Positions 1 to 33,357 of a DNA stretch of 64,000 nt are shown piece by piece. Position 1 is the stretch's first letter. The number at the start of each line of letters is the position of its first letter. Source of the stretch: a bacterium (GTDB lineage Bacteria > J088 > JAWLBW01); contig JAWLHK010000002.1 in NCBI GenBank assembly GCA_041690355.1, forward strand, positions 283,082 to 347,081. Reading direction: 5' to 3'. Position numbers and translations under genes: made by a program. The notes under the pieces were generated by a model. It was given only the letters and a program-made list of their open reading frames with translations. It did not search any database and was not told where the DNA came from.

Positions 1-107
1 TCGTTCAGATCGCGCCAGTTCTGCCAGGCCCAGGCGCCCACGAGCGCCGTGCCAATCAGGAGAAATGCCAGGAATAACCCGGCCATGGAGTGCAGGATTT
101 TCTTCAT
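1..107 (-). CDS. membrane protein, N-terminal fragment (gene runs off window start); possibly MltG/YceG-like
   Basis: Reverse strand reads MKKILHSMAGLFLAFLLIGTALVGAWAWQNWRDLNE with one TM helix; ATG at 105-107 overlaps the ruvX stop; the MltG guess rests only on the common ruvX-mltG gene order. Confidence 0.3.
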   Translation of the reverse strand, partial: MKKILHSMAGLFLAFLLIGTALVGAWAWQNWRDLN

Positions 108-517
108 CGGGAGTCTGCGTCGAGGTAATTCTGGAGAATGATGGCGGCCGCGATGCGATCGACGGAACCCTTTTGGCGCCGGACCTTCCGGGGGGCGTCG
201 CGCAGCACCCGGGTGGCCTCGATAGACGAAAAGCGCTCGTCGACGGTTTCGACGGGCAGGCCGAGGGTCGCTCCGATCCGGCCGGCGAGGTCGAGGACGC
301 GCGTGGCCCGCGGTCCTTCGCTGCCGTCCTGATTCAGGGGCAGGCCGACGACCACGCGGCTGATTTCGTGCTCGCGAACCAGGGCGCCGATGCGCGCCAG
401 AAGGTCGCGATCGCCGGTGATTTCGAGCGTGCCCACGGGTTGGGCGGTAAGCCCCAGACTGTCGCTGACGGCAACGCCTACCCGGCGTTCGCCGAGGTCC
501 AGTCCGAGAATCCGCAT
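104..517 (-). CDS. ruvX: Holliday junction resolvase-like protein RuvX/YqgF
   Basis: Translation MRILGLDLGERRVGVAVSD... matches the YqgF/RuvX N-terminal signature; start taken at the internal Met (MRILG) rather than the longer ORF start at 544. Confidence 0.85.
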   Translation of the reverse strand: MRILGLDLGERRVGVAVSDSLGLTAQPVGTLEITGDRDLLARIGALVREHEISRVVVGLPLNQDGSEGPRATRVLDLAGRIGATLGLPVETVDERFSSIEATRVLRDAPRKVRRQKGSVDRIAAAIILQNYLDADSR

Positions 518-565
518 GGCGGTTATTATATCCGCGCCGACCAACGGGCGCGACCCCCCACATCA

Positions 566-745
566 AGTTACGAGTTACGAGTGACGAGTGAACGAGTGAC
601 GAACACCTTACCGTTCGCCTCGAGCTTACGGACGAAGGCAGAGCCGGAGTCGACAGCGAGAGGTTGCGCAAACTGACGATTGACGATTTGGCGGAACGCG
701 CCCGCTGGCCCCCGTCCCTTGCTTCCTTGGCGCTCGGCGCTTGTC
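566..745. repeat. mosaic intergenic element, reverse orientation (TCACTCG array 566-605, AATCGTC units 675-688, AGCGCCG module 725-745)
   Basis: Tandem 7-bp units cgagtta/cgagtga, gacgatt x2 and ccttggcgctcggcgcttg; the reverse complement of 601-688 aligns with 10563-10650 with few mismatches. Confidence 0.8.
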
Positions 746-811
746 TTGTCCCCCGGCGGCGTTTGACGCTTGGCCGGCGTTCAGTGAGCAGCGGGTTTCT
801 CGTCTCGTGCG

Positions 812-835
812 TTGAAAGGGGGGGCATGGTAGAAT
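812..835 (+). promoter_or_regulatory. putative typA promoter with extended -10 (TGgTAGAAT) and weak TTGAAA -35
   Basis: ttgaaa at 812-817, TG at 827-828, tagaat at 830-835; the 11-mer catggtagaat is repeated upstream of rimP. Confidence 0.35.
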
Positions 836-887
836 ATTAGACTTTACATTCGTCTCCGGAGGAGAACCGGAGGACAGGAAAGATTTT

Positions 888-2717
<1,830 letters not shown>

Positions 2718-2718
2718 A

Positions 2719-2830
2719 TTTACGATTGACGATTGACGATTGACAATTTTCGGAACGAACCCTGGCATGCTGCCCGTTCTTGCGGGAGCCGGTCAAATCG
2801 TCAATTGTAAATTGTAAATCGTCAATTTCC
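2719..2830. repeat. inverted pair of AATCGTC-type heptamer arrays (2719-2750 and 2794-2830) flanking a 43-bp core
   Basis: Arm 1 tttacgattgacgattgacgattgacaatttt, arm 2 caaatcgtcaattgtaaattgtaaatcgtcaatttcc; arms pair unit by unit with a few mismatches; begins 2 bp after the typA stop. Confidence 0.8.
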
Positions 2831-2862
2831 TCTGCCCGATAACTGCGGGCCAGGAGCACGAC

Positions 2863-4473
2863 ATGAAACTCTATCTGCCGGAACTGCGGCTGCGGATTGA
2901 AGAGTCCGCTGAGTTGCTGCGCGAGCGGGCCGCAGGGCAGCTGCAGATCGCACCCGACGCCATCCGGAAGCTCGACATCCGCCGGCGCTCGCTCGATACC
3001 CGGCAGCGCGACGTCATCTGGAGCGTCTACGGCCTCGAGCTCGAAGTCGACCCCGCGGCCGTGGCGCCCGACACGGGCCGGCGCTTTTCGCAGATCCCCA
3101 AGCGGGCGCTTCCGGCGCCGCTCCCCCCGCGGCCTTCGCGGCTTCCCGAACACCCGATCGTCATCGTGGGCGCCGGTCCCGCCGGGCTCTTCTGCGCCCA
3201 GCGGCTGGCCGACGTGGGGGTCCCCTGCGTGCTCGTGGAACGGGGGAAGCCGATCCGCCGGCGCGCCCAGGATACCAAGCGGTTCAAGAAGAGCGGCGAG
3301 CTGAACCCCGAGAGCAACATCCAGTTCGGCGAGGGCGGAGCCGGAACCTACAGCGACGGCAAGCTGACCTACCGCACCGACGACCCGCTGTCGGCCTGGG
3401 TGCTCGAGACCTTCATCCGCTACGGGGCCGACCCGGAGATCCGCTATCTGAACCGCCCCCACATCGGCACCGAACACCTTCGCGCCTGCATCGTGCGCAT
3501 GAGCGAGGGGCTGTCGGCACAGGGGGTCGCCTTTCGCTTCGATTCCCGGTTGGAACATCTGGTCATCGAAGAGCAGGGGAACCGGAAAGTACTGCGCGCC
3601 GCGCGGCTGACCGACGGCGAGATTCCCGCGGAAAAGCTGGTGCTCGGCATCGGCCACTCCGCACGGGATACGTTTCTCGCGCTGCAGGCCGACGGGGTCC
3701 CCTTCGTCGCCAAGCCGTTCGCCGTGGGGGTGCGCGCGGAACATCCGCAATTGCTCGTGGACCAGAGCCAGTACGGCCGGCATGCCGATAATCCTGCGCT
3801 GCCGCGGGCGAGCTACGCCCTGTCGCAGCAGGTGCGCACCGACGCAGAGCGGGGCGTCTATTCCTTCTGCATGTGTCCGGGCGGCGAGACGATGGCTTGC
3901 TCGAGCGAGTTCGGTGGCGTCGTCACGAACGGCATGAGCTACTCCGTGCAGCGCAGCGGCGTGGCCAGCTCGGGGCTCGTGGTCAGCGTGAATCCGCCGG
4001 ACTGCGGCGACCCGGCGGATGCGTTTGCCGGGATGCGCTTTCAGCGTTCCCTCGAAGAAGCGGCCTTCCGTCTCGGCGGCGGAACTTACTTCGCGCCGGC
4101 GCAGGGAATTTCCGATTTCCTGAGTGGCAAGGTTTCCGGTCGTCTTGGCGCGCAGGGAACCACGTACCATCCCGGGGTGACCGAAGCCGATCTGCGTACG
4201 ATCCTTCCGCCGTTCGTCACGGCCGCGCTCGAGCGGGCACTCCCCGCGTTCGAGCGGCGCATCCGCGGGTACACGGGCGAGAGCGGAATCATCGTGGGGG
4301 TCGAGACGCGCACGAGCAGCCCGGTGCGCATCCCCCGCGAAGAGGACCTGCAGGCCACCGGCTGGACCGGCCTGTATCCCGTGGGCGAAGGCGCCGGGTA
4401 TGCGGGCGGCATCGTGAGCGCGGCTGTCGACGGCGTGCGCGCGGCCGACGCGATCCTGAAAGCCCTGGCGTGA
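2863..4473 (+). CDS. FAD-dependent oxidoreductase (uncharacterized FAD-dependent dehydrogenase family)
   Basis: 536 aa; dinucleotide-binding motif IVIVGAGPAGLFCA and GIGHSARD segment typical of this family. Confidence 0.75.
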   Translation: MKLYLPELRLRIEESAELLRERAAGQLQIAPDAIRKLDIRRRSLDTRQRDVIWSVYGLELEVDPAAVAPDTGRRFSQIPKRALPAPLPPRPSRLPEHPIVIVGAGPAGLFCAQRLADVGVPCVLVERGKPIRRRAQDTKRFKKSGELNPESNIQFGEGGAGTYSDGKLTYRTDDPLSAWVLETFIRYGADPEIRYLNRPHIGTEHLRACIVRMSEGLSAQGVAFRFDSRLEHLVIEEQGNRKVLRAARLTDGEIPAEKLVLGIGHSARDTFLALQADGVPFVAKPFAVGVRAEHPQLLVDQSQYGRHADNPALPRASYALSQQVRTDAERGVYSFCMCPGGETMACSSEFGGVVTNGMSYSVQRSGVASSGLVVSVNPPDCGDPADAFAGMRFQRSLEEAAFRLGGGTYFAPAQGISDFLSGKVSGRLGAQGTTYHPGVTEADLRTILPPFVTAALERALPAFERRIRGYTGESGIIVGVETRTSSPVRIPREEDLQATGWTGLYPVGEGAGYAGGIVSAAVDGVRAADAILKALA

Positions 4474-4493
4474 GGCGGGCTGCACAGCCGCGC

Positions 4494-4710
4494 ATTCCTG
4501 ATTCCTGATTCCTGATTCTTGATTCTTGACTCCTTGAGCCGGAAGGTGAAGCGCCGAGCGCCGAGCGCTAAGCACCGAGGAAGGGCAAAGGTTTCATCGT
4601 CCTTGTCTGAAATCGTCAATTGTAAATCGTCAATCGTCAATTCCCGTGACTTGACGCGCGCCCGCCGACTCTATATTTTGACTCTTGACCCCTGACTCTC
4701 GACTCGCGAC
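4494..4710. repeat. mosaic intergenic element (ATTCCTG array 4494-4537, AGCGCCG module 4548-4580, AATCGTC array 4610-4645, GACTCTT-like array 4668-4710)
   Basis: Four distinct tandem heptamer arrays in a row between the FAD gene stop and the sterol-desaturase-family start. Confidence 0.8.
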
Positions 4711-4718
4711 GAAGAACC

Positions 4719-5594
4719 ATGCCCGACATCATCCTCTATGCCATTCCGTTCTTTCTGGGAACGGTGATTCTTGAAGCGGTCGTTTCGTCCTGGCTCAAGG
4801 TGAAGGACGTGAAGGGGTTCGAGAAGAAAGACACCTTCGCGAGCCTCGGCATGGGCATCGGCAACGTGCTCGTGAACCTGATGGTCAAGGGGGGCGTGTT
4901 CGCGAGCTTCACGTTCCTCCATCAGTTCCGCCTGTTCGACATCGGGACTGTCTGGTGGGCGTGGGTGCTGCTGCTGTTCGGCGAAGACCTCTGCTACTAC
5001 GCCTTTCACCGCGCGAGCCATGAGGTGCGCTTTCTCTGGGCGGCGCACGTCAATCACCACTCGAGCGAGCACTACAATTTGTCGACGGCGCTGCGCCAGT
5101 CGTGGACGACGCCGCTGACGAGCTTCTGGTTCTGGCTGCCGCTGCCGCTCCTCGGTTTCGAGCCGTGGATGATCGTGACCCAGCAGTCGATCAGCCTGCT
5201 CTATCAGTACTGGATTCACACCGAGTGGATCAAGAAGCTGCCGTTCGGTCTCGAAGGGGTGCTCAATTCTCCCTCGCACCACCGCGTGCACCACGGGTCG
5301 AACGCAGCGTATCTGGACCGCAACCACGGCGGCATCCTGATCATCTGGGATCGCCTCTTCGGCACCTTCGCGCCCGAGCGCGAGAAGGTCGTCTACGGAC
5401 TGACGAAGAACATCCACACGTTCAACCTCGTGAAGATTGCCTTTCACGAGTGGGCCGCGCTGCTCAAGGACATGGCGCGTCCGAATCCGTTGTGGGTGCG
5501 GCTGCAGTATGCCCTGCGTCCGCCCGGATGGAGCCCCGACGGCTCGACCCTGACCTCGGATCAGCTTCGCGCGACGCAGCAGGCGCAGGCGTAA
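4719..5594 (+). CDS. fatty acid hydroxylase / sterol desaturase family membrane protein
   Basis: 291 aa; histidine boxes HRASH, HVNHH and HHRVHH in a multi-TM protein. Confidence 0.85.
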   Translation: MPDIILYAIPFFLGTVILEAVVSSWLKVKDVKGFEKKDTFASLGMGIGNVLVNLMVKGGVFASFTFLHQFRLFDIGTVWWAWVLLLFGEDLCYYAFHRASHEVRFLWAAHVNHHSSEHYNLSTALRQSWTTPLTSFWFWLPLPLLGFEPWMIVTQQSISLLYQYWIHTEWIKKLPFGLEGVLNSPSHHRVHHGSNAAYLDRNHGGILIIWDRLFGTFAPEREKVVYGLTKNIHTFNLVKIAFHEWAALLKDMARPNPLWVRLQYALRPPGWSPDGSTLTSDQLRATQQAQA

Positions 5595-5645
5595 GTTAGC
5601 AATCGCTACCTGCGATAGTTCTCCTCTCGCATCGCCGCCGGCTAT

Positions 5646-5864
5646 TTAACCGGGATGTTTCCGGTCAGTCGCTCTGGAAGCTTCGTATCCTTCAAGTTCC
5701 GCTCGCCATTCTCCGGTCAGAAACTTTTCGGTCATGGCCTCGCGCCGCTTCAGCATGAGCGCTTCGGAGAGCAGCTTCCGAATCGCCGGGCCTTTCTTCT
5801 TTTCACCCGTTAACTCGCAGATTTCCCTGACTTCTTCGTCAGCGATTTCAAATGCGATCCTCAT
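5646..5864 (-). CDS. solo antitoxin-like small protein (VapB/DUF2191-like)
   Basis: 72 aa, MRIAFEIADEEVREICELTGEKKKGPAIRKLLSEAL..., resembling VapB-type antitoxins; the 251-aa ORF on the track is judged an overextension across DoxX; region looks lower in GC than its surroundings. Confidence 0.45.
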   Translation of the reverse strand: MRIAFEIADEEVREICELTGEKKKGPAIRKLLSEALMLKRREAMTEKFLTGEWRAELEGYEASRATDRKHPG

Positions 5865-5933
5865 ATTTCTGAGTTTCCCACAGGGCAATGGCAACAAGCA
5901 ACGCCCGAGGTTGCGGCAGTACGGACGTCTCGT

Positions 5934-6404
5934 TTGTATACTGTATGCATGCAGAATCTCACGCGTTTTCTCTATTCTCCCGTCGAGTCGACATCCGTCT
6001 CGCTCGGGCTGCTCGCGCTTCGCGTGGGCACCGGGTTGTTCATGTTCTTCTTCCACGGTCTGGGCAAGGTACTGAATTATGCGGAACGGGCGCAGACGTT
6101 CAAGGACCCACTCGGCGTGGGGAGCGAGATCAGTCTGCTGCTCGCCATTTTCGCCGAGGTCGTCTGCGCGCTCGTGATCGTGCTTGGGCTGGGGACGCGG
6201 CTGGCGGCCATTCCGCTCGTGATCACGATGCTCGTGGCCGCGGGCATCGTGCACATTACCGACCCGTGGGCGAAGCAGGAGTTCGCGCTGCTCTACGCGA
6301 TCCCCTTCTTCGGGCTGCTGCTGACGGGCGCGGGGAAGTTTTCCCTGGATGCCCGTCTCTTCGGGCGCGCACCCGCTGCGCCGGTTCCGCCGACGGTGCA
6401 CTGA
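5934..6404 (+). CDS. DoxX family membrane protein
   Basis: Multi-TM protein with DoxX-like layout; true start may be the internal ATG at 5949 (MQNLTRF). Confidence 0.75.
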   Translation: MYTVCMQNLTRFLYSPVESTSVSLGLLALRVGTGLFMFFFHGLGKVLNYAERAQTFKDPLGVGSEISLLLAIFAEVVCALVIVLGLGTRLAAIPLVITMLVAAGIVHITDPWAKQEFALLYAIPFFGLLLTGAGKFSLDARLFGRAPAAPVPPTVH

Positions 6405-6484
6405 AACTGGGCCTGCTTCCAGCGCGCTTGCCGAGCAGCCGCTTTCGTGCTTAGCTATGAGCAGCCGGCCTTTCTGAAAAAGCG

Positions 6485-6640
6485 ATGCGGACGCGAACCA
6501 TTTTTATCGTTGCCGCGATTCTTGGCTTCGCTTTCTGGTCAGCCTGGCCTTGGCTGGAAGAGTTTCTGGCGGTTGATCGCTGTCTGGACTCCGGCGGTCG
6601 GTGGTTGGCTGAAGAGTCCCGCTGCGAGGATGGGTTGTGA
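6485..6640 (+). CDS. small hypothetical membrane/secreted protein (51 aa)
   Basis: Read by eye (below the track length cutoff): MRTRTIFIVAAILGFAFWSAWPWLEEFLAVDRCLDSGGRWLAEESRCEDGL; stop overlaps the GTG start of the next gene (GTGA). Confidence 0.3.
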   Translation: MRTRTIFIVAAILGFAFWSAWPWLEEFLAVDRCLDSGGRWLAEESRCEDGL

Positions 6641-7020
6641 AACGCATTTTACTCGGTCTCTTCGTTGGCGTTGCTGCCGTGATTGCCGGAAGAGCGGGTC
6701 TCGACTTGGTGCGGCCACGTCATCTGGTCATCGTCCTGAACGAAACCGGCCAGAACCTTCGCTCGTTCGGGATTGGCGTACGGGAACCCAAGGTGTTTGC
6801 GGAGGTGCCCGCGGGTGCGGTTCGATTCTTCGAGTTTCGTGATGTCAGCCATGCCGCCTACGTCTTTTCGCTGCCGAACGCATCCGGAGTCCGGGAGCCT
6901 GCCGGCAGCTGCGGATACACGGGAGCGGGTGTCAACCGGTATATCGTTCGGCTGAAGGAGTTCCCCGTTGAGGACAGGCACTGCGCTCCCGGACACCCAA
7001 CGAACAGGGGAATGGAATGA
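6637..7020 (+). CDS. hypothetical secreted protein
   Basis: 127 aa with N-terminal hydrophobic segment; GTG start; coupled to both neighbouring genes by 4-bp overlaps. Confidence 0.4.
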   Translation: MKRILLGLFVGVAAVIAGRAGLDLVRPRHLVIVLNETGQNLRSFGIGVREPKVFAEVPAGAVRFFEFRDVSHAAYVFSLPNASGVREPAGSCGYTGAGVNRYIVRLKEFPVEDRHCAPGHPTNRGME

Positions 7021-7424
7021 CGAACCCTCTGGTGGGTGGGCGGGTTCCATCCGGCCGGTGGATTGTGCTCGCTCGACGCGCGGGTGCCCTGGCGATCGAC
7101 GGATGCGTCGCGCTCTTCCTCGGTGTCGCGGGCGCGCTGCTCGGCGAAGCGATGGAGCTCCTCCACGGCGCCCGTCCATTCATGCCCGGCGCCGCCGTCG
7201 CGGCTTTTCTGGTCCTTCGAACGGCCGATCTCTCCCTTGGATATCGCGTGTTCGGTCTCAGCGCCGCCAACACATCCCTCGTTAAGAATCTCATTCGTGC
7301 CGTCGCGGTTCTCGTACCCGGGTATAACGTATTTGACGGGGTCCACGCCCTCTTGGTTTCAAATCAGCAGACGTTTACGGACAGCAGACTTGCCGTCAAG
7401 GTGGTTGAGGCACGGCTTCGTTGA
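7017..7424 (+). CDS. hypothetical membrane protein, tentatively RDD-family-like
   Basis: 135 aa; hydrophobic segments with R...D and TFTDSRLAVKVV motifs loosely resembling RDD proteins. Confidence 0.4.
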   Translation: MTNPLVGGRVPSGRWIVLARRAGALAIDGCVALFLGVAGALLGEAMELLHGARPFMPGAAVAAFLVLRTADLSLGYRVFGLSAANTSLVKNLIRAVAVLVPGYNVFDGVHALLVSNQQTFTDSRLAVKVVEARLR

Positions 7425-7447
7425 GGGAAGGCCAATTGTTTGAAGTA

Positions 7448-7476
7448 TTGACAGCAGTGATATCAATGCCTACAAT
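7448..7476 (+). promoter_or_regulatory. sigma70-type promoter of the toxin-antitoxin operon (TTGACA-17-TACAAT)
   Basis: ttgaca at 7448-7453, 17-bp spacer with palindrome tgatatca, tacaat at 7471-7476; the antitoxin ATG at 7483 sits about where transcription would start. Confidence 0.55.
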
Positions 7477-7482
7477 GACGAC

Positions 7483-7734
7483 ATGGCGACACTGAACGTG
7501 AGAAACCTTCCGGACGATGTTCATGCCCGTCTCCGCATTCGCGCGGCCAAGGCCGGCCGCAGCATGGAGGCCGAGGCACGGGCCATTCTCGAATCCGCGT
7601 GTCGCGACGAAACCGCAGCTGAAAAGGAGTCCGATCTCCAGGCGTGGGTCGATAAGCTCTATTCGGGTCGGAAACCAAAACGCGTCGTCGAGTCGCTGAT
7701 CCGTGAACGTCGTCTCGCGGCAAAGCGCGAGTGA
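7483..7734 (+). CDS. type II antitoxin, ribbon-helix-helix (FitA/VapB-like)
   Basis: 83 aa; MATLNVRNLPDDVHARLRIRAAKAGRSMEAEARAIL is typical of FitA/VapB antitoxins; stop overlaps the toxin start. Confidence 0.8.
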   Translation: MATLNVRNLPDDVHARLRIRAAKAGRSMEAEARAILESACRDETAAEKESDLQAWVDKLYSGRKPKRVVESLIRERRLAAKRE

Positions 7735-8105
7735 TTGCACTCGATGCATCGGCGCTGCTGGCGTACCTTTTCCGTGAGCGTGGCCACGAGGAGGTAGCCC
7801 CGCTTCTTGACGAGGCATGTATATCGACGGTGAATTACGCGGAGGTACTTTCCCGATTTGTGCGGGATGGCATCGATATTCTGGACCTCACCGGGCCTCT
7901 GAGCCGTCAGCTTGAAGTGGTACCCTTTGACGAATCACAAGCCGTACGTGCCGCCACTTTGCTCCCTTTTTGTGCGCCGCTGGGCCTATCGCTGGCCGAC
8001 AGGGCCTGTCTTGCCCTTGCTGCGGTCCGGAGTATACCCGTCTACACGGCTGACCGGGTCTGGGCGAAGCTCGACATCGGGATAGACATCCGTTTGATAC
8101 GCTGA
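7731..8105 (+). CDS. vapC: type II toxin VapC (PIN-domain ribonuclease)
   Basis: 124 aa; PIN acidic residues (IALDAS, LSLADRA, YTADR); GTG start overlapping the antitoxin stop. Confidence 0.85.
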   Translation: MIALDASALLAYLFRERGHEEVAPLLDEACISTVNYAEVLSRFVRDGIDILDLTGPLSRQLEVVPFDESQAVRAATLLPFCAPLGLSLADRACLALAAVRSIPVYTADRVWAKLDIGIDIRLIR

Positions 8106-8139
8106 CGGACCCTTCTGTCCGCCATCGGCCATCGGGCAT

Positions 8140-10431
8140 TCAGTTCGCGCGACTCGTCATCTCGAAGACGATCTCGCGGCTCGTGGTCAGCTCTTCGTGC
8201 TCGAGGTAGTGCCGGTTGATGCGCTTACCGTCCACGTAGACCGCGCCGACATAGATATTCTTCTCCGAAGTTCCCGGCGCGCGAATGGTGAGGGTGCGGC
8301 CATTCTCGAGGCGGATGACGGCCTTTTCGAAGATCGGCGTGCCGATCCAGTAGCGGGTCGTGGCGGGAATCGGATAGAAGCCGAGGGCGCTGAAGATGTA
8401 CCAGGCCGACAGCGTGCCGCCGTCGTCGTTGCCGTCGAGGCCGTCGGGACCCGTGCCGTAGCGGCTTTCCATGACCCACCGGATGACCGGCGCGCCGCGT
8501 TTCGGTTCGCCCCACATCGCATACAGGTAGGGGGCGTGCAGGTCGGGCTCGTTGCCGTGCCAGTAGTAGTTGTCGGGCATGCGGATATCGCCGAGATATG
8601 GCTTCGGCGTCTCCTGCGACTTCGTGAAGAAGTGGTCGAGCTTCGCCAGGGCCGCGTCGACGCCGCCGAGCAGCGTCGCCAGCTTCTCGACGTTCCACGG
8701 CACAAGCCAGAGGTACTGCCAGGCGTTGCCCTCGGTGTAATCGTCGGTGTGGTTGAGCGGGTCGAGGGCCGGTAGCGCCCAGGAGCCGTCTCGCTTTTTC
8801 GCGCGGAAAAAGCCGTTCTCCGCATCCCAGAGGGTGTCGAACGCGTCGGCCCGGTCTGCGAAGAACAGGGCGTCTTCTTCCTTGCCGATGGCCTGCGCGA
8901 ACCGGCTGATGGCAAAGTCGGCCCACATGTTTTCCTGCGTAACCGAAACGGAACCGTTGGTGTTGTCGGCGGTGCAGTGCCCGAGGGTGTTGTAATCGTC
9001 GACGCAGCGCCGCATGTTGTACGGGTCACCCCAGACGGCCGTCGAGACCATGAGCGCGTAGGCACGTTGCCAGTCGAAGTCGCGGATTCCCTTGAGATAG
9101 CTGTCTGCAATCACGATGTCGGCCGGGGTACCGATCATGGATGCCCCGTCACGGTGGGCGAAGGGCCAGCGGGGCAGGGAGCCGCGGGCGCGCCCCATTT
9201 CGACGAGTGAGCGCACGAAGTCGCGCTGATACGAGGGCGTCAGCCACGTCAGCAGCGGATGCAGCGTGCGGTAGGTATCCCACAGGCTCATGTCCGAGTA
9301 GAACTCGCTTCCGGCGTCGGCGGCGATGCTTCCGTCAAAGGCACGGTGGCGGCCGTTCACGTCGCTGTAGAGGCTCGGCATCTGCAGGGCATGGTAGAGG
9401 GCCGTGTAGAAGATTTCGCGCTGGTCGGGCGTGCCCCCTTCGACTTCAATCTGGTCGAGGCGGGTCTCCCAGACGGTGCGCGCCGCTTCGCGGATGTCGT
9501 CGAAGGTACGCCCGGCCGTTTCGACCGAGCGGTTCGCCTCGGCATCCCGGGCGCTCGTGAAGGAGATGCCGACGAAGACCTCGACCGGGGCCGACGGATC
9601 GAAGTGGAGATAGGCCCCCGTGCTTCCGCCGCTGCCGTCGGCGCGGGCGTTGATGCCGCGATCCTGGAGGGCGCCGCCGTCGGTGGTCGCGCTCCACACG
9701 CCGTACTTGCGGAAGGGCCTGCTGAAGACGGCATCCATGTAGATGGTGACGCCGCCGAAGCGCCCCGAAAAGGCGTTCCGCTGATGCAGGGAGCCGCGCA
9801 GCCGCTTCTCGCCGGGAAGGATCTCGATCTGGCTCCAGTCGACCTCGCCCGAAGAGAGCGTATGCCCGAGGTCGACCACGACGACGGCATCGGCGCCGGG
9901 GGGAAAGGTGTAGCGGTGCGCGCCGGTGCGCAGCGTGGCCGACAGCTCGGCGCGGATGGCCTGGGCCCGCTGTTCTTCATCGGCCGGATCGGAAACGCCC
10001 AGATCGACGGCGTAGTACCCCGGCTCGCCGACCTCGGCCCCGTGCGTAAAGGGGGCGCTGTATCCGCGCCAGCTCGTTTTCTCGGCGGTCATGCCGAGCG
10101 TGGGCATGAAGGTGACGTTGCCGTAATCGATGGCGCCGGTGCCGTGGACGTGCGTGTGGCTGAAGCCTTCGATGTGCGTATCGCCGTAGAAGTAGCCGGC
10201 GAAGTGCGCGAAGGTCTCCCGGCCGAAGAGTCCGCCCTGGGTGTCGGGGCTCAGTTTGACGAGGCCGAAGGGGAGGGCGGCGCCCGGGTAGCAGCTGCCG
10301 GCGCCGAACCCGGTGCCCCCCGTGCCGATGAAGACGTCGACCTCTTCGAACGGCGAGCGCCGCTCGGATTCGGGAAGCGGAGGGCAGGCGGCGAGCAGGA
10401 AAGCGAAAATCAGGAAGACGAATCGCATCAT
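8140..10431 (-). CDS. glycoside hydrolase family 92 (alpha-mannosidase-like), secreted/lipoprotein
   Basis: About 764 aa; signal peptide MRFVFLIFAFLLAAC; GH92 N-terminal signature VFIGTGGTGFGAGSCYPGAALPFGLVKLSPDT. Confidence 0.85.
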   Translation of the reverse strand: MMRFVFLIFAFLLAACPPLPESERRSPFEEVDVFIGTGGTGFGAGSCYPGAALPFGLVKLSPDTQGGLFGRETFAHFAGYFYGDTHIEGFSHTHVHGTGAIDYGNVTFMPTLGMTAEKTSWRGYSAPFTHGAEVGEPGYYAVDLGVSDPADEEQRAQAIRAELSATLRTGAHRYTFPPGADAVVVVDLGHTLSSGEVDWSQIEILPGEKRLRGSLHQRNAFSGRFGGVTIYMDAVFSRPFRKYGVWSATTDGGALQDRGINARADGSGGSTGAYLHFDPSAPVEVFVGISFTSARDAEANRSVETAGRTFDDIREAARTVWETRLDQIEVEGGTPDQREIFYTALYHALQMPSLYSDVNGRHRAFDGSIAADAGSEFYSDMSLWDTYRTLHPLLTWLTPSYQRDFVRSLVEMGRARGSLPRWPFAHRDGASMIGTPADIVIADSYLKGIRDFDWQRAYALMVSTAVWGDPYNMRRCVDDYNTLGHCTADNTNGSVSVTQENMWADFAISRFAQAIGKEEDALFFADRADAFDTLWDAENGFFRAKKRDGSWALPALDPLNHTDDYTEGNAWQYLWLVPWNVEKLATLLGGVDAALAKLDHFFTKSQETPKPYLGDIRMPDNYYWHGNEPDLHAPYLYAMWGEPKRGAPVIRWVMESRYGTGPDGLDGNDDGGTLSAWYIFSALGFYPIPATTRYWIGTPIFEKAVIRLENGRTLTIRAPGTSEKNIYVGAVYVDGKRINRHYLEHEELTTSREIVFEMTSRAN

Positions 10432-10494
10432 AGCGATGGATTCTACCATGGCGCGTCATTTCTGTAACGCGCTACTTGAGCGCCGGGCACCAGT

Positions 10495-10672
10495 CAAGCG
10501 CCGAGCGCCGAGCGCTGAGCGCCAAGGAAACAAGCACATGGGTATTTTCGGTACTTTCCGGTAAATCGTCAATCGTCAGTATGCGCAACCTCTCGCTGTC
10601 GACTCCGGCCCTGCCTTCGTCGGTCAGCTCGAGGCGAACGGGAATGTCACTCGTCACTCGTAACTCGTAACT
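10495..10672. repeat. mosaic intergenic element, forward orientation (AGCGCCG module 10495-10527, AATCGTC units 10563-10579, TCACTCG array 10647-10672)
   Basis: Same module order and internal unique sequence as the reverse-oriented element at 566-745. Confidence 0.8.
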
Positions 10673-10754
10673 TCGCGGAGCGCTCCCCCTTCCCCCCTTG
10701 GCAAGGGGACGCACTACAATAGGGAAGCGTGAACGCCGCCTCGAGGAGTTACCG

Positions 10755-11456
10755 ATGAAGAAATGGAAGACCCTGCCCCCCAACATCCGCCTCCGGCTCG
10801 TCGAACCGGGCGGCCATGCCTACGAATTGCCCCTGCTTCCGGCTGTGCTCGGGGGACCCGGGGCCGACATCGTGCTCGACCACCCGACGGTTTCGGCCGA
10901 ACACGCGCGCATCGAGCTGGCCGGCGGGGTGCTCGTGGTGCGCGACCTGGCTTCGCGCAAGGGGACCTGGGTGAACGGGCGCCGCGTGGGAGACGACCTG
11001 CGCGCGCTCGAACACGGCGACACGCTGGCGCTGGGCTCGGCCCTGCTGCGGGTGGATCTGCAGTCGGTGGCGCGTCAGCAAGGGCGCCGGGCGGTGGCGC
11101 CGCTGGCCGAAACCGTGCCCGCGGGCCACGAGGAGGCTCAGGAGGCGCACCGGTGGAGCACGGCCCGCAGCGTCTGGCTCGTGGTCAACTCCGGCGGCGG
11201 ACAGCAGCGGTTTCTGCTCGATCGCCCCGTGCAGACCATCGGCCGCCTGGCCGACATCCGCATTTCCGATCCCGCCTTGTCGCGGAAGCACCTCCAGGTT
11301 GAGATCCACCCCGATCGCGTCTGTCTGAAAGACCTGGCGAGCGCGAATGGAACCTATGTGGACGGCCACCGCATCTCCTACCTGGAGGTGGATGGAGAAG
11401 TGACGTTTTCGGCCGGCTCGGCCACGTTTCACCTCGTCGCCAACCAGCGCGCCTGA
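10755..11456 (+). CDS. FHA domain-containing protein (two FHA domains)
   Basis: Start at MKKWKTL with gaggag RBS; two FHA-like modules (…GTWVNGRRV… and …GTYVDGHRI…). Confidence 0.8.
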   Translation: MKKWKTLPPNIRLRLVEPGGHAYELPLLPAVLGGPGADIVLDHPTVSAEHARIELAGGVLVVRDLASRKGTWVNGRRVGDDLRALEHGDTLALGSALLRVDLQSVARQQGRRAVAPLAETVPAGHEEAQEAHRWSTARSVWLVVNSGGGQQRFLLDRPVQTIGRLADIRISDPALSRKHLQVEIHPDRVCLKDLASANGTYVDGHRISYLEVDGEVTFSAGSATFHLVANQRA

Positions 11457-11478
11457 GCCGGACGCCGTTCCCGGAAAC

Positions 11479-11506
11479 AAAAAAGGGCGCCTGCGGGCGC
11501 CCTTTT
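11479..11506. terminator. bidirectional intrinsic terminator between the FHA gene and grx
   Basis: aaaaaa + GC stem gggcgcc / ggcgccc with tgcg loop + tttt. Confidence 0.6.
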
Positions 11507-11526
11507 CCAACCCGTGTGCAACCGGG

Positions 11527-11841
11527 TCAGACGCCGGCCATCTTCGCCAGGTCGCCGCTGGCGGCCATCTGCTGCACGATGTCGTTGCCGCCGACGAATT
11601 CACCGTTCACGTAGAGCTGGGGAATCGTGGGCCAGTTGGAGAAGTCCTTGATCCCCTGGCGCAGGGCCTCGTCGGCCAGCACGTTGCGGGCGGCAAAGGG
11701 GATGCCGAGGCGCTTCAGCGTCGCCACGGTGGCCGCCGAGAAGCCGCACATGGGCTGGTCGGGGGTTCCCTTCATGTAGAGCATGACTTTGTTTTCCTGG
11801 ACGTCCTTGGAAATCATGTCGAATACCGGATTCTCGGCCAT
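11527..11841 (-). CDS. grxD: Grx4-family monothiol glutaredoxin
   Basis: 104 aa with CGFS active site (PMCGFSAAT). Confidence 0.9.
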
Positions 11842-11879
11842 GTAAGCCTCCTCTAGGAAAAAGAAAATTCAGACGGAAC

Positions 11880-12116
11880 TTAATCGGATGCCATCGTGGT
11901 CAGGGCCAGGGCGTGAATCGGAGCGTGCGAGCCCTGGATGTACTCGTTGAGCGCGCCGTAGACCATCTGATGCTGCTTGACCAGCGTGAGCTCCTTGAAT
12001 TGCGGCGCCTTGATGGTGGCGGCGAAGTGGTCGCCGGTGCCGGTCGTGTCGACGACGTTCACCCGGGCGCCCGGGAGCGCAACTTCAATCAGTTTCTGGA
12101 CTTCTTCAGTCGTCAT
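11880..12116 (-). CDS. BolA family protein
   Basis: 78 aa from MTTEEVQKLIEVALPGARVNVVDTTGTGDHFAATIKA; the track ORF is overextended upstream. Confidence 0.85.
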   Translation of the reverse strand: MTTEEVQKLIEVALPGARVNVVDTTGTGDHFAATIKAPQFKELTLVKQHQMVYGALNEYIQGSHAPIHALALTTMASD

Positions 12117-12200
12117 GCATCCTCTGTCGGGGGGTGAAAGGCCATATTGTACCAAATTGGTGCGAATTCGGGGAGGGAAGCGTCGAGCGTCAAGCAACCA

Positions 12201-12236
12201 AGAAAAAACCCCGGCCGCCGTGGGGCGACCGGGGTG
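12201..12236 (-). terminator. putative intrinsic terminator downstream of the H+-PPase gene
   Basis: On the minus strand: GC-rich hairpin (ccccggtcgcc / ggcggccgggg) followed by a T-run. Confidence 0.5.
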
Positions 12237-12258
12237 CAATGGTGCGGACGGGCCGCGC

Positions 12259-14736
<2,478 letters not shown>

Positions 14737-15011
14737 CGTTCGAACTCCAGGTTTCGAATGGGTAAGGGAAGTCGGGTCGCAGGCGCGCCGCCGCAGCCGG
14801 GGGGCAGGGTGGAAAAACTGAGCGCCAAAAAGCAGTTAAACGGCCTAGTATAGCAGCAAACCGGGTGGCTGTAAAGCAATCGGCCTGAGGATGGGACGGG
14901 GCAAACAAAGCGGGCTGTCAACCCCTCGCCGATGTGTTTTTCGGATCGCCCCCGGCGCCCGGAAGGGAGCCGGTAGTCTGAGAGTGGACGTTTTTTCCAT
15001 GGAGGAATTCT

Positions 15012-15308
15012 ATGAAAGCGAAGTTCTGGATAGCTTCCGCCGCGGCTCTCGTGCTGGGTACGGCCGGTTTCGCCCAGGCAGCCGGCGGCGACAAGGAACA
15101 CGAAGGCATGGAGGGTCAGCAGACCGAAGAGATTCTGATTCCCGCCCCGGGCGAGGCCACGGCCGGCACCGAAGAAACGCGCGTCCCGATGGAGGGCGAA
15201 GAAGGGATGCAGGACCCGGGGCTGCAGCAGGACGAGGTGATTCAGGAAGACCTGGCGCCTGAAGAGGGCGCGACCGGCGCCGAAGAGTCCGACGGCATGA
15301 ACTACTGA
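15012..15308 (+). CDS. small secreted acidic protein (hypothetical)
   Basis: 98 aa; signal peptide MKAKFWIASAAALVLGTAGFAQA; ggagg RBS; followed by a terminator. Confidence 0.5.
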   Translation: MKAKFWIASAAALVLGTAGFAQAAGGDKEHEGMEGQQTEEILIPAPGEATAGTEETRVPMEGEEGMQDPGLQQDEVIQEDLAPEEGATGAEESDGMNY

Positions 15309-15328
15309 TCAGCCGGATACGAAGCATG

Positions 15329-15369
15329 AAAAAAGCGGAAACCGGCCGGTCCGGTTTCCGCTTTTTTTT
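15329..15369. terminator. bidirectional intrinsic terminator
   Basis: A-run, stem gcggaaaccgg / ccggtttccgc, T8; lies between the 15012 gene and the 3' end of tRNA-Val. Confidence 0.65.
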
Positions 15370-15375
15370 CGAAGA

Positions 15376-15450
15376 TGGTGGGCGATGTAGGGATCGAACC
15401 TACGACTTCCACCGTGTGAAGGTGGCACTCTCCCGCTGAGTTAATCGCCC
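15376..15450 (-). tRNA. tRNA-Val (anticodon CAC)
   Basis: Minus-strand read GGGCGATTAACTCAGCGGGAGAGTGCCACCTTCACACGGTGGAAGTCGTAGGTTCGATCCCTACATCGCCCACCA folds as a cloverleaf: 7-bp acceptor stem, D and T arms, anticodon loop TTCACAC, encoded CCA. Confidence 0.9.
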
Positions 15451-15510
15451 GAGTGCATGCAGGAATCGAAAATTGTAGCAGCCCCTTTCGGAATGATCAA
15501 TGGGGCCGCT

Positions 15511-15649
15511 GCCAAGCGCTGAGCACCGAGCGCCCATGAGGAACGAGAAACGTGATCAAGGTTCTTGCCTGGATTCGTCACTCGTCACTCGTAACTCGTA
15601 ACTCGGCACTTGCATAAATCGTCAATCGTCAATCGTAAATTGTAAATTC
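15511..15649. repeat. mosaic intergenic element (AGCGC module 15511-15535, caaggttcttgcc 15557-15569, TCACTCG array 15573-15606, AATCGTC array 15616-15649)
   Basis: Tandem heptamers as in the other elements; the AATCGTC array overlaps the last codons of the 15622..16008 gene. Confidence 0.8.
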
Positions 15650-16008
15650 TCCGGCTCCGCCGCCGCCGCCTCGATGGTTCCGCCCGGGGCCACCAGATAG
15701 AACCCGGCATCCCCGTCACCGTACTCCCCGGACGGATCCGACAGCAGCGGCGCCTGGATGCCGAACCGGTCGCACAGCGCGCGCGCTTCGGCTGGTTCGG
15801 CCGCCACGATCAGATAGACGTTCACGAAATCTTCGAGCAGCCAGTGGGCCACGCGCGCGGCCGCGGCTTCGAGCAGGCGCTCCTGTCTCGCACGGGGAAC
15901 AATGCCGACGACCGTGTGCCCGCGGGCGAAGATTTCGGCCAGATCGATGTTCCCCCCCTTGCTCGAAGCCAGACGGCGGGCGGGAAACGGCGTGCGGACG
16001 GCAATCAT
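15622..16008 (-). CDS. hypothetical protein with degenerate thioredoxin/peroxiredoxin-like segments (no CxxC)
   Basis: 128 aa from MIAVRTP; APLLSDPSGEYGDG and FYLVAPGGTIE resemble peroxiredoxin motifs but no catalytic Cys is present; C-terminal ENLQFTIDD is encoded by the heptamer array. Confidence 0.4.
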   Translation of the reverse strand: MIAVRTPFPARRLASSKGGNIDLAEIFARGHTVVGIVPRARQERLLEAAAARVAHWLLEDFVNVYLIVAAEPAEARALCDRFGIQAPLLSDPSGEYGDGDAGFYLVAPGGTIEAAAAEPENLQFTIDD

Positions 16009-16151
16009 TGGAGGGCGCTCGGGAAAGAGGTTCGTTCCGTTCCAGTATACGGAATTCCACCCGCGGTCGCCGCCGGAGGAGCGACGGTCGTGCATACTTT
16101 CGCTGCGGCGGGCGGGCGGCCGATTTGTCCGGGCATCCCCGCCGCGCTATC

Positions 16152-17396
16152 ATGACTGGCATGACAGCCTGGCAGGGAAAACAGGTTCTTCTCGGGGTGA
16201 GCGGCGGGATCGCCGCCTATCGCGCCGCCGAACTGGTGCGCCTTTTCGTCAAGGCCGGGGCGAGCGTGAACGTCGTCATGACGCGCAACGCCACCGAGTT
16301 CATCACGCCGCTCACGATGCAGACCCTGAGCGGAAATCCCGTACTTACGGACACCTTCGACCGGGAACAGGGAGCCGACATCAAGCATGTCTCGCTCCCC
16401 GACGAGGCGGATGTGATCGTGCTCGCGCCCGCCACGGCCAACCTCATCGGAAAGCTTGCGAACGGCATCGCCGACGACCTGCTGACGACCGCCCTGCTCG
16501 TGGCCCGCTGCCCCATCGTCATGGCGCCGGCCATGAACGTGCACATGTGGGATCACCCCGTCGTGCAGGAGAACCTCGCCCGGGTTCGCCGTATTCCCGG
16601 CCTTCGCGTCGTGGAACCCGTGGAGGGGCTGCTTGCCTGCGGCTGGGAGGGAAAGGGGAAGCTGGCGGAGCCGGAGGCCATTTTCCGGGCGGCGGGCGAG
16701 GCCCTGCGTCCTCGGGATCTGAGCGGCCGCAGCCTGGTGCTCACGGCCGGGCCGACGCGGGAATTCCTCGATCCGGTCCGCTACCTTTCGAATCCGTCCA
16801 CCGGCAAGATGGGGCTCGCCATCGCCGAGGCCGCCGCCGTGCGCGGGGCCGACGTGACCGTCGTGCTCGGGCCCACCGCCGAGAAGCCTCCGGCCGGGGT
16901 GCGCGTCCTTCGGGTCGAATCGGCCGCCGACATGTTCGAGGCCGCGCGCGCGGCCTTCGCAGACGCCCAGGTGTTCATCGCCTCGGCTGCCGTCGCCGAT
17001 TACACGCCGGCGGTGCGCGAAGACCGTAAAGTGAAGAAAAGCGAGGGGGATGTCGACGTACGCCTGACGCGCACGACCGACATCCTCAAGACGCTTGCCG
17101 CCGACAAGGGTGAGCGGATCGTCGTCGGCTTCGCGGCCGAGACGAACGACGTGGTCCGCTACGCGCGCGAGAAGCTTGTCGCCAAGAACTGCGATCTGGT
17201 CGTCGCCAACGACGTCACGGCGCCCGGAAGCGGGTTCGCCGTCGACACGAACCGGGCGATTCTGGTCGAACGGGAAGGCGAGACCGAGCTACCCCTGCTG
17301 ACCAAGCGTGAGATCGCCGACCGTATTCTCGATCGTGTCGTCGAGCTGCTTGCGCAGGGCGGCCGGATCGAGCGCCCTGAGCGCCACCGCGCCTGA
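16152..17396 (+). CDS. coaBC: bifunctional phosphopantothenoylcysteine decarboxylase / phosphopantothenate-cysteine ligase
   Basis: 414 aa from MTGMTAWQGK; flavoprotein N-domain (VLLGVSGGIAAYRAAEL) and CoaB C-domain (LVLTAGPTREFLDPVRYLSNPSTGKMG). Confidence 0.9.
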   Translation: MTGMTAWQGKQVLLGVSGGIAAYRAAELVRLFVKAGASVNVVMTRNATEFITPLTMQTLSGNPVLTDTFDREQGADIKHVSLPDEADVIVLAPATANLIGKLANGIADDLLTTALLVARCPIVMAPAMNVHMWDHPVVQENLARVRRIPGLRVVEPVEGLLACGWEGKGKLAEPEAIFRAAGEALRPRDLSGRSLVLTAGPTREFLDPVRYLSNPSTGKMGLAIAEAAAVRGADVTVVLGPTAEKPPAGVRVLRVESAADMFEAARAAFADAQVFIASAAVADYTPAVREDRKVKKSEGDVDVRLTRTTDILKTLAADKGERIVVGFAAETNDVVRYAREKLVAKNCDLVVANDVTAPGSGFAVDTNRAILVEREGETELPLLTKREIADRILDRVVELLAQGGRIERPERHRA

Positions 17397-17397
17397 A
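17318..17397. repeat. 80-bp direct repeat, copy 1 (3' end of coaBC)
   Basis: Matches 21988-22067 with 4 mismatches in 80 bp; encodes the CoaBC C-terminus on the plus strand. Confidence 0.85.
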
Positions 17398-17417
17398 GTC
17401 ACGGGCATAGGTTCGGC

Positions 17418-18308
17418 TCAGCGCCGTTTGCCCTGGCTCTCGAGATCCGAATCGTCCTCGTCGTCGGGGTCCTCCGGATCCTCCTCTTCATCGTCTCGGT
17501 CATCGTCGTCCGGCTCGCCGGGCGCTTCGGGGTCTTCATCGTTGATGCGGGGCTGCTGATCCTGCGATCGGGCGCGAATTTCCTCCACCGCTCGCGTTTC
17601 ACCCGCGCGCTCCTGCAGCTCGTCGCGCTGCAGTGCATCGGCCGCATCCCGGGCAGGGTGAGCCGGCCGGCTGAACCCGCGCATGGCGTGGAGCCAGGAG
17701 TCAAAGGCAGACCCCTTCAATGCCTCCGGCTGCACCGCAGCCAGGTCTTCACCCGAGACGAGGCCGGCCGCCAAGGCCCGCGCGGCGGTCCGGGTCGCGT
17801 CGTCCATCTGGCCGGGGCGCAGTGCCGCTCTCAACTGCGTCTTCACGAAGGCTACGGCTTCGCCCTCGCCGGCGCCGGCCGCATTCAGGACGCCGGTGGC
17901 GTACAGAGCAGACTGCATGCGTTGCGCGTCGCCGGCCAGAGCCTGAAGATCGGCAACGGTCGCTGCCGACAAGCCGCCGGCCATGGCCGTCAGCGCCGCC
18001 TGCTGCACGGGGCGTGCCGCTACGGCTCCGGGGGCGGCCTTCTGCAGCGCGGCAAGCCGAGCCCGCTGCAGTTGCAGCGCTTCGACGAGCCGGACTGCCG
18101 GAACCCGCTTTGCGACACCTTCGAGCGCCTTTTGTCGCAGCGGTTCGGTCGGCAGGCCGTCGTTCTCGGCGGCATCGAGGAGCGCCTGTACGCGGGCAGC
18201 CACCTCGCGCGGATAGCCGCTGCGGGCGAGTCGATCGGCAAGTCTCTCCTCGCCCCACGCAGACGGGATGGAAACCAGCAGCAAGAGGATGGTGGCGATT
18301 GTTTTCAC
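17418..18308 (-). CDS. secreted Ala-rich protein with poly-acidic C-terminal tail (hypothetical)
   Basis: 296 aa; signal peptide MKTIATILLLLVSIPSAWG; C-terminal D/E-rich tail. Confidence 0.55.
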   Translation of the reverse strand: MKTIATILLLLVSIPSAWGEERLADRLARSGYPREVAARVQALLDAAENDGLPTEPLRQKALEGVAKRVPAVRLVEALQLQRARLAALQKAAPGAVAARPVQQAALTAMAGGLSAATVADLQALAGDAQRMQSALYATGVLNAAGAGEGEAVAFVKTQLRAALRPGQMDDATRTAARALAAGLVSGEDLAAVQPEALKGSAFDSWLHAMRGFSRPAHPARDAADALQRDELQERAGETRAVEEIRARSQDQQPRINDEDPEAPGEPDDDDRDDEEEDPEDPDDEDDSDLESQGKRR

Positions 18309-18691
18309 GGTGTCCTCTTCTCTAACGGTCGAGCCGCCTCGGAGTCACCGCCCGGCGGAACCAGGAGTACGGCGTTGCGGCCGCCAAAGTCGTCTTGCTC
18401 GTACCAGTCGAAATCGACGGGCGGCGCACTCCCCGCAGGGCCCAGGCAGTGCAGCCGATACACACCGGGCGGCGGCGACGCAAACTGCAGACGCCAGCCC
18501 GCGCGAGTCTCGCGGCTTTCGAGCAGAGAAACCGGTCGCCATGCCGAAAAGTCAGCCAGCAGCTCCGGTCTGCCTCCCAGGGCCGGGCACGTGACTTCCC
18601 AGGCCGCGCCCAGCGACTCGGGGCGTGCCTCACGGTAGCAGCCGGTGACCGCGGTTGCGGCTAGAACCAGTAGAGCGGCGCGAATTCCCAT
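18305..18691 (-). CDS. lipoprotein (hypothetical)
   Basis: 128 aa; lipobox LAATAVTGC; overlaps both neighbours. Confidence 0.5.
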   Translation of the reverse strand: MGIRAALLVLAATAVTGCYREARPESLGAAWEVTCPALGGRPELLADFSAWRPVSLLESRETRAGWRLQFASPPPGVYRLHCLGPAGSAPPVDFDWYEQDDFGGRNAVLLVPPGGDSEAARPLEKRTP

Positions 18692-19566: not shown

Positions 19567-19578
19567 GCAGAGGCGACC

Positions 19579-20160
19579 TTACCGGGCGGCGATGTGGACG
19601 ACGGAATTGACGCGGCCGAACCCGTCGTCGACTGTCCCGGCCGCGGCCGGATCGGCCAGCCACTGCTCGCCATCGACGACGAACTGATACTGATAGACGC
19701 CCGGCGTCAGCTCAATCGATAATCGCCAGACCCTGCCTTCACGGCGCAGGACGTGGCGCTCCGGATCCCAGCCATTGAACTCACCCACGAGGGCGACCGA
19801 TTCCGCATGCGGGTGGACGAAGACGAACTCCGTCCCCGAAGGGGAACCGGGCAGCGTTCTCGCCGCCAGAACGCCGAGCGCGAAGGCGAGCACCAGGGAC
19901 GCAAAGGCCGCCAGGGGCGCCGCCCGCCGCAAGGTGAGGCGCCACCATGGGGTACCGTGTTCGGCCGCACGCATACGTACGGCGCGCAAGACCCGTTCCT
20001 CGAAACCGGGAGACGGTTCGGCGTCGATGGGCATGGCCGACCAGGTGCGGGCGGCCGCATCGAGCGCCGGCGATGCGGCACGCCGCCGCGCAAACGCGGC
20101 GTGCTCGGCTTCGGTGAGTTCGCCGGCGAGATACTTGGAGAGCAGTTCAGCGTCACTCAT
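19579..20160 (-). CDS. anti-sigma factor with C-terminal CBM48/AMPK-beta-like carbohydrate-binding domain
   Basis: 193 aa; N-terminal anti-sigma-like region, one TM helix, then VALVGEFNGWDPERH...GVYQYQFVVDGEQWLADP resembling the AMPK-beta glycogen-binding domain; overlaps the sigma gene by 8 bp. Confidence 0.65.
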   Translation of the reverse strand: MSDAELLSKYLAGELTEAEHAAFARRRAASPALDAAARTWSAMPIDAEPSPGFEERVLRAVRMRAAEHGTPWWRLTLRRAAPLAAFASLVLAFALGVLAARTLPGSPSGTEFVFVHPHAESVALVGEFNGWDPERHVLRREGRVWRLSIELTPGVYQYQFVVDGEQWLADPAAAGTVDDGFGRVNSVVHIAAR

Positions 20161-33332: not shown

Positions 33333-33357
33333 TGGGGCGTAGTATAATGAGCGAATC

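Follow-up and report, generated by a model that had tools for sequence, protein, structure and literature searches.

A VapBC/FitAB toxin-antitoxin module with a probably leaderless antitoxin transcript and a predicted operator box array overlapping its promoter

The toxin-antitoxin module described here is located within a 64,000-nucleotide stretch of bacterial DNA (referred to as the window), to which all coordinates refer. It is composed of two plus-strand genes, which specify a ribbon-helix-helix antitoxin and a PIN domain toxin, preceded by a sigma-70-like promoter and a series of predicted operator boxes. The features of the locus are as follows.

7441 to 7443, plus strand: in-frame TGA stop codon 5′ of the antitoxin open reading frame (ORF), read from the sequence; 7483 is the first start past this stop
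7448 to 7453, plus strand: −35 hexamer TTGACA, 6/6 match to the consensus
7449 to 7456, no strand assigned: operator box 1, TGACAGCA, overlapping the −35; phase −34
7454 to 7470, plus strand: 17-nt spacer, gcagtgatatcaatgcc, read from the sequence
7458 to 7465, no strand assigned: operator box 2, TGATATCA, the palindrome tgatatca, within the spacer; phase −25
7467 to 7474, no strand assigned: operator box 3, TGCCTACA, the commonest box among relatives; phase −16
7471 to 7476, plus strand: −10 hexamer TACAAT, 5/6 match to the consensus
7476 to 7483, no strand assigned: operator box 4, TGACGACA, ending on the A of the ATG, where +1 is predicted; phase −7
7477 to 7482, plus strand: gacgac, the six bases separating the −10 from ATG 7483
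7483, plus strand: predicted +1, on the A of the start codon and 7 nt past the final base of the −10, proposed from promoter geometry and the recurrence of a 6- to 7-nt distance in relatives
7483 to 7734, plus strand: antitoxin ORF, 83 amino acids (aa), FitA-like ribbon-helix-helix at residues 2 to 45
7731 to 7734, plus strand: GTGA, the antitoxin stop overlapping the toxin start, read from the sequence
7731 to 8105, plus strand: toxin ORF, 124 aa, GTG start, VapC-type PIN domain with D5/E38/D90/D108

The product of the first ORF was matched by the Pfam family FitA-like_RHH (PF22513; E value of 5.2e-20, residues 2 to 39) and, more weakly, by Arc (E value of 6e-5). FitA of Neisseria gonorrhoeae (PDB 2H1O_E and 2BSQ_E; E value of 2e-4, residues 3 to 45) is the sole significant relative among solved structures, with Mnt representing a weak match in the PDB. 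All 27 aligned antitoxin sequences start at M1, and the residues of the beta-strand which face DNA are, in this protein, T3, N5, and R7; the C-terminal tail presumably binds the toxin.

The second ORF encodes a protein which was matched by the Pfam PIN family (PF01850; E value of 1.9e-13, residues 2 to 115), and the assignment of the pair to the VapBC type, as made in the original prediction, was thus borne out by Pfam matches of both products. A word-indexed search retrieved 5,295 toxin homologs, mostly of 125 aa and, where labeled, annotated as VapC or PIN nuclease. Residues D5, E38, D90, and D108 were invariant across an alignment of 25 of these homologs; four such acidic residues are the defining mark of VapC active sites. 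A single-sequence search of the PDB with the toxin returned only noise, the structural matches being obtained instead from profile and fold searches. The alignment profile matched Mycobacterium tuberculosis VapC26 (PDB 5X3T; E value of 4e-5) and VapC30, and the AlphaFold2 model (pLDDT of 95.6 and pTM of 0.89) returned, as its top Foldseek matches, VapC of the E. coli F plasmid, Salmonella, Shigella, and M. tuberculosis (TM scores of 0.78 to 0.82; E values of 1e-7 to 1e-6), with lower likeness to FitB (TM scores of 0.62 to 0.68). NCBIfam and PADLOC models produced no match to either the antitoxin or the toxin.

For comparison, relatives of the toxin were scanned using one genome per species, yielding at least 80 loci, among which 26 encoded a homologous FitA-like antitoxin that could be aligned from residue 1. 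A scan of metagenomes, for which the antitoxin alignment served as the query, yielded at least 80 further loci. Following the removal of duplicates, of loci with short upstream sequence, and of those whose antitoxin match did not start at residue 1 or 2, 102 upstream regions were retained. Most toxin relatives below approximately 50% identity (loci L029 to L080) had no antitoxin detectable with the FitA-like query, and the PIN clade of these relatives seems, from sequence comparison, to be paired with other antitoxin types through partner swapping.

The overlap of the antitoxin stop with the toxin start, which had been described previously for this locus, was confirmed as GTGA at positions 7731 to 7734. 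A 4-nt NTGA overlap was present in 23 of the 26 homologous genome loci (among the loci listed), which favors a mode of toxin synthesis in which ribosomes reinitiate once the antitoxin has been translated. One might instead view the module as decayed or domesticated, with a toxin that is no longer toxic and a pair reduced to a small, autoregulated DNA-binding protein and an inactive companion. Certain VapC proteins, including M. tuberculosis VapC1 and VapC27, are indeed nontoxic upon expression (PMC6118392), and the lack of NCBIfam and PADLOC matches would agree with such a fate. Nevertheless, both ORFs are intact and of full length relative to their homologs, the remaining invariant positions are retained along with all four catalytic acidic residues, the toxin model is confident, and both the NTGA coupling and the operator array (see below) are intact. 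Because the ORFs, catalytic residues, coupling, and operator are all preserved, we consider decay to be highly improbable.

The region from the promoter into the antitoxin gene reads gtaTTGACAgcagtgatatcaatgccTACAATgacgacATGgcg. Direct reading of this sequence upheld the original description of a TTGACA-17-TACAAT promoter followed by 6 nt and ATG 7483. With 11 of 12 consensus positions, this promoter ranked first among the 10 sites found in bases 1 to 20000 and was the only match of at least 11/12 on either strand of the entire 64-kb window, against 0.05 expected from first-order Markov simulations of the window. Relative to A7483, the −35 occupies positions −35 to −30 and the −10 positions −12 to −7, which places the canonical +1 exactly on the A of ATG 7483. 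The in-frame TGA at 7441 to 7443 precludes any start codon upstream of ATG 7483, which is, moreover, the sole start that preserves the antitoxin ribbon-helix-helix strand. None of the Shine-Dalgarno motifs GGAG, GAGG, and AGGA is present in the 17 nt 5′ of this ATG. In folding of the predicted mRNA, its 5′-most 60 nt showed no excess of structure over shuffled sequences (z = +1.04), and the centroid fold leaves the AUG unpaired.

The palindrome tgatatca in the promoter spacer had been put forward as a plausible autorepression operator. While the palindrome is indeed present (7458 to 7465), it constitutes only the second of four boxes and not the whole operator. The operator is predicted to consist of four 8-bp TGNNNNCA boxes with a 9-bp spacing, extending from 7449 to 7483 (−34 to +1), and a 30-bp imperfect palindrome (7447 to 7476) is centered on the tgatatca of box 2. 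The last five bases of box 3 are the first five of the −10, which itself extends across the boundary between boxes 3 and 4, and the boxes together cover the −35, the spacer, the −10, and the +1. Given that the −35 overlaps box 1 and that the −10 lies across boxes 3 and 4, bound antitoxin would be expected to occlude the whole promoter and the +1.

A pattern of three boxes was found only at this site in the window (two overlapping matches, with 0 expected), and in the genome loci, numbering at least 80, all 11 matches to this pattern were located immediately upstream of an antitoxin gene. Across 27 upstream regions (of the loci listed), 71 boxes were counted against 0.26 expected per region, representing an approximately 10-fold enrichment, and the dominant spacings between boxes were 9, 18, and 27 nt (33, 16, and 6 instances, respectively). 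The units are thus 8 bp in length but are repeated every 9 bp, in arrays of two to four, and boxes two apart are separated by 18 bp; judging from this arrangement, such pairs could be bridged by a toxin dimer, as in FitAB.

The sequence of the boxes varies with residue 5 of the antitoxin. The box TGCCTACA was counted 16 times in the 27 loci and 32 times among the listed loci whose antitoxin carries Asn5. CCTACA boxes were present in 28 of 43 loci with Asn5 versus 3 of 59 with another residue at this position (P = 4e-11; loci listed), a test which, like those of layout against Shine-Dalgarno sequence below, counts related loci as independent and is inflated by their shared ancestry. Loci specifying Thr5 antitoxins carry the boxes TGCATGCA, TGCTAGCA, or TGACAGCA. 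A candidate fifth box, TGGCGACA (7484 to 7491, plus strand), was not counted, as it lies 8 nt rather than 9 nt from box 4 and coincides with codons 1 to 3; it is probably a by-product of Met-Ala-Thr or Met-Ser-Thr codons. A box-like octamer abutting box 4, as TGGCGACA does here, was also observed in loci L112 and L114.

To describe the layout of the 102 upstream regions, a close promoter was defined as a sigma-70-like match of at least 8/12 with its −10 ending 5 to 10 nt before the start, and a Shine-Dalgarno sequence as GGAG, GAGG, or AGGA. Close promoters were present in 23 of the 102 listed loci, all 23 of which have an ATG start and 22 of which lack a Shine-Dalgarno sequence, whereas 58 of the other 79 listed loci possess one (Fisher P = 1.5e-9), this absence being partly forced because the −10 sits where a Shine-Dalgarno sequence would lie. 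Among control ORF starts in the same loci, 16 of 1,279 (1.25%) have a promoter at such a distance. The boxes follow the same division: in loci with the leaderless layout they occupy a fixed phase of −34, −25, −16, and −7, the last box ending on the A of the ATG, and a box at −7 was present in 24 of the 102 listed loci, none of which (0/24) has a Shine-Dalgarno sequence, compared to 59 of the other 78 (P = 6e-12, with related loci again counted as independent).

The antitoxin family is spread across Pseudomonadota, Acidobacteriota, Myxococcota, Chloroflexota, and other phyla. The leaderless layout was seen in Pseudomonadota, Acidobacteriota, Myxococcota, and Bradymonadales; among the 26 genome loci, it was encountered in Dongiaceae, Burkholderiales, Sphingomonadales, Terriglobia, Thermoanaerobaculia, Bradymonadales, and Archangium. 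In a rough neighbor-joining tree of antitoxin plus toxin for 52 genome and metagenome loci, the two layouts interleave, with at least nine changes between them. Six leadered loci (L010, L038, L081, L089, L096, and L098) retain TTGACA-17-TACAAT together with TGCCTACA boxes, positioned 24 to 39 nt upstream.

This comparison of 102 loci supports, at the sequence level, a leaderless antitoxin mRNA. An alternative is that most transcripts of the antitoxin gene carry a leader and arise by read-through from the ORF at 7017 to 7424 or at an unrecognized promoter; in this view, the hexamers are a side effect of the boxes and translation begins at an internal start without a Shine-Dalgarno sequence. The same-strand ORF at 7017 to 7424 ends 58 nt before the ATG with only weak terminator-like sites in between, and, in the lack of a convincing terminator, leadered read-through transcripts may exist in addition. 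The hexamers do, furthermore, overlap the boxes, with TGACAGCA holding most of the −35 and TGCCTACAaTG containing TACAAT, and an obvious Shine-Dalgarno sequence is also absent from several other genes of the window. Against this alternative, the hexamers recur with their 17-nt spacing in relatives found in unrelated genomic contexts, the 11/12 match is unique in the 64 kb, and no protein family was significantly matched by the upstream ORF (RDD, E value of 0.08). Where the hexamers lie 20 to 39 nt upstream, a Shine-Dalgarno sequence is present, and where they abut the ATG, it is absent; that the same hexamers are always accompanied by a Shine-Dalgarno leader when positioned further upstream argues that they do function as a promoter. 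The comparative results fit a working promoter which sometimes abuts the ATG, and we regard predominantly leadered transcription as unlikely.

A second alternative retains the promoter and shifts transcription initiation to 1 to 3 nt before the AUG (e.g., to G7480 or A7481), which would result in a very short leader. The choice of start site varies within about 6 to 9 nt downstream of a −10, and the distance from the −10 to the ATG in homologous loci is 6, 7, 9, or 10 nt. This distance is 6 to 7 nt in 19 of the 23 close-promoter loci, however, which would let transcription begin with a purine either at the A of the ATG or one base away from it. Such a short leader at the present locus is considered distinctly unlikely. 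Leaders of 1 to 3 nt behave like leaderless mRNAs in translation, and the functional difference would be small.

It is proposed, with a probability of approximately 75%, that the module is a leaderless, autorepressed VapBC/FitAB toxin-antitoxin operon. As such, it would represent a chromosomal type II operon which carries its own compact cassette for expression and control. RNA polymerase with the housekeeping sigma factor would act on TTGACA-17-TACAAT and start at A7483, yielding an mRNA which would begin with AUG and would thus have neither a 5′ leader nor a Shine-Dalgarno sequence. Ribosomes are presumed to initiate antitoxin synthesis at this 5′-terminal AUG, and the toxin is most likely produced by termination-reinitiation at the GTGA overlap. 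Antitoxin dimers would insert their N-terminal beta-strand (T3, N5, and R7) into the four TGNNNNCA boxes; bridging by the toxin, as in FitAB, probably strengthens this binding, which would shut off the promoter. Upon loss of the antitoxin, the PIN toxin, with its D5/E38/D90/D108 site, would be freed to cut its presumed RNA target and thereby exert its predicted toxicity.

The FitAB system of N. gonorrhoeae (PDB 2BSQ, 2H1O, and 2H1C) resembles the module in its FitA-like antitoxin domain, its PIN toxin partner, and its 8-bp DNA units. FitAB contacts 6 of the 8 nt in each half of its inverted repeat (PMC6118392). The 8-bp box unit identified here from sequence fits such half-site contacts. The sequence TGCTATCA, which we take to be the FitA half-site, occurs among the boxes of related loci. 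While the FitAB operator comprises two inverted half-sites which are separated by 12 bp, lie about two helical turns from each other, and are bridged by a toxin dimer, the boxes of the present module are arranged in tandem, 9 bp from start to start and up to four in a row. Ribbon-helix-helix dimers placed side by side at 9-bp spacing may form an assembly unlike the two-half-site FitAB complex. The toxin model is, in addition, closer to the enteric and mycobacterial VapC proteins (TM score of about 0.8) than to FitB, and we know of no leaderless start for fitAB.

Likeness to the M. tuberculosis VapBC26, VapBC30, and VapBC15 modules is evident for the toxin, whose profile matches VapC26 and VapC30 and whose fold matches VapC30 and VapC15. 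The present module differs in belonging to a different, uncultured host lineage and in possessing both a full −35 and a full −10, mycobacterial promoters depending mostly on the −10. For the M. tuberculosis VapBC modules, we are aware of no description of a stereotyped box array which ends in the AUG. Of the 37 toxin-antitoxin pairs of M. tuberculosis for which a primary start has been mapped, 32 are leaderless (PMC3898074).

5′ RACE and N-terminal sequencing have also established leaderless expression for paaR2-paaA2-parE2 of E. coli O157:H7, which resembles lambda cI in this respect (PMC8630535), and the transcript of the PvuII controller gene (C.PvuII) is likewise leaderless and arises within its own operator (PMC2175313). 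These three systems share with the present module a small autoregulator of a mobile or selfish element whose transcription starts in or next to its own operator, although their regulators are helix-turn-helix proteins with an experimentally defined leaderless start, whereas the regulator here is a ribbon-helix-helix protein and its start is predicted. Arc, Mnt, CopG, MetJ, and omega share the DNA-reading beta-strand, in which alternate residues face the bases, and operators of ribbon-helix-helix repressors are composed of closely spaced tandem or inverted short units. Those repressors, however, stand alone with no toxin partner, and the 9-bp spacing and the TGNNNNCA frame are specific to the antitoxin family considered here. 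Autorepression of VapBC/FitAB operons through operators which overlap the promoter is well documented (PMC3378870; PMC3920265).

The module is one VapBC/FitAB pair among thousands, and leaderless toxin-antitoxin transcripts have already been documented in mycobacteria and E. coli. Since leaderless toxin-antitoxin operons are established and their autorepression is textbook knowledge, the module belongs to a known kind and does not define a new class, and the box array ending in the AUG and the split of one family into two layouts are refinements which introduce no new principle. What the comparison adds is a single antitoxin family with two cleanly separated layouts, one leaderless and one with a Shine-Dalgarno leader, and a readable operator grammar, with TGNNNNCA recurring at 9-bp intervals, which follows a single residue of the strand that reads the DNA. 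Predictions of operator specificity can be drawn from this, for instance for an N5-to-T5 swap, and the region offers a compact natural promoter/operator part. A further, tentative suggestion, which we consider possible rather than probable, is that the 36-bp promoter/operator/AUG cassette acts as a host-independent portable unit which is carried along with the toxin-antitoxin family and bound by adjacent dimers at 9-bp spacing, and that its layout has switched repeatedly. If so, this portable cassette family would provide a natural series for the gain and loss of leaderless initiation.

The host belongs to an uncultured lineage, its closest relatives with a name being of the Binatia, Thermodesulfobacteriota, and Geobacter type. 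Its PNPase shares 76% identity with the nearest protein in the database and 62 to 64% with proteins of Binatia, Thermodesulfobacteriota, and Geobacter. The window also encodes tetratricopeptide repeat (TPR)-linked Ser/Thr kinases and a DUF4388 response regulator, and the G+C content of the module (58 to 60%) is slightly lower than the window mean of 65%. Immediately 5′ of the promoter, where the upstream ORF ends, the sequence carries a direct repeat of 13 nt with a 16-nt spacing, GTTGAGGCACGGC / GTTGAGGGAAGGC (7404 to 7432, plus strand); as two copies only were found, it may have arisen by chance. A possible second antitoxin, the 72-aa product of the ORF at 5649 to 5864 (minus strand), was rejected, as neither Pfam nor NCBIfam returned a significant match to it; a toxin gene is, moreover, absent next to this ORF. 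The product begins MRIAFEIADEEVREICELTGEKKKG and resembles small VapB/DUF2191-type antitoxins.

Promoter-like sequences were also observed close to other start codons of the window. For the GH92 glycoside hydrolase gene (minus strand), the start may be ATG 10431 in place of 10449, which would give MMRFVFLIFAFLLAAC, a lipoprotein-like signal peptide, and GTTACA-17-TAGAAT (9/12, a weak match; within 10431 to 10468, minus strand) ends 8 nt before ATG 10431. This gene could, on such sequence features, be a second short-leader or leaderless gene in the window. TTGTCC-17-TATCAT (9/12; 16125 to 16163, plus strand) ends 7 nt before ATG 16161 of a 411-aa ORF, which is a third candidate for a leaderless start by the same reading, and a perfect TATAAT lies 9 nt before ATG 33358 (33337 to 33360, plus strand) of a 444-aa ORF. 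A search of the window against Rfam identified no known RNA element at the toxin-antitoxin module; its sole match in the window was a single tRNA gene at 15379 to 15450 (minus strand). A strong hairpin resembling an intrinsic terminator, with 12 pairs, of which 10 are G-C, followed by a T run, is located at 12208 to 12235 (minus strand), directly after the H+-pyrophosphatase gene (12259 to 14736, minus strand).
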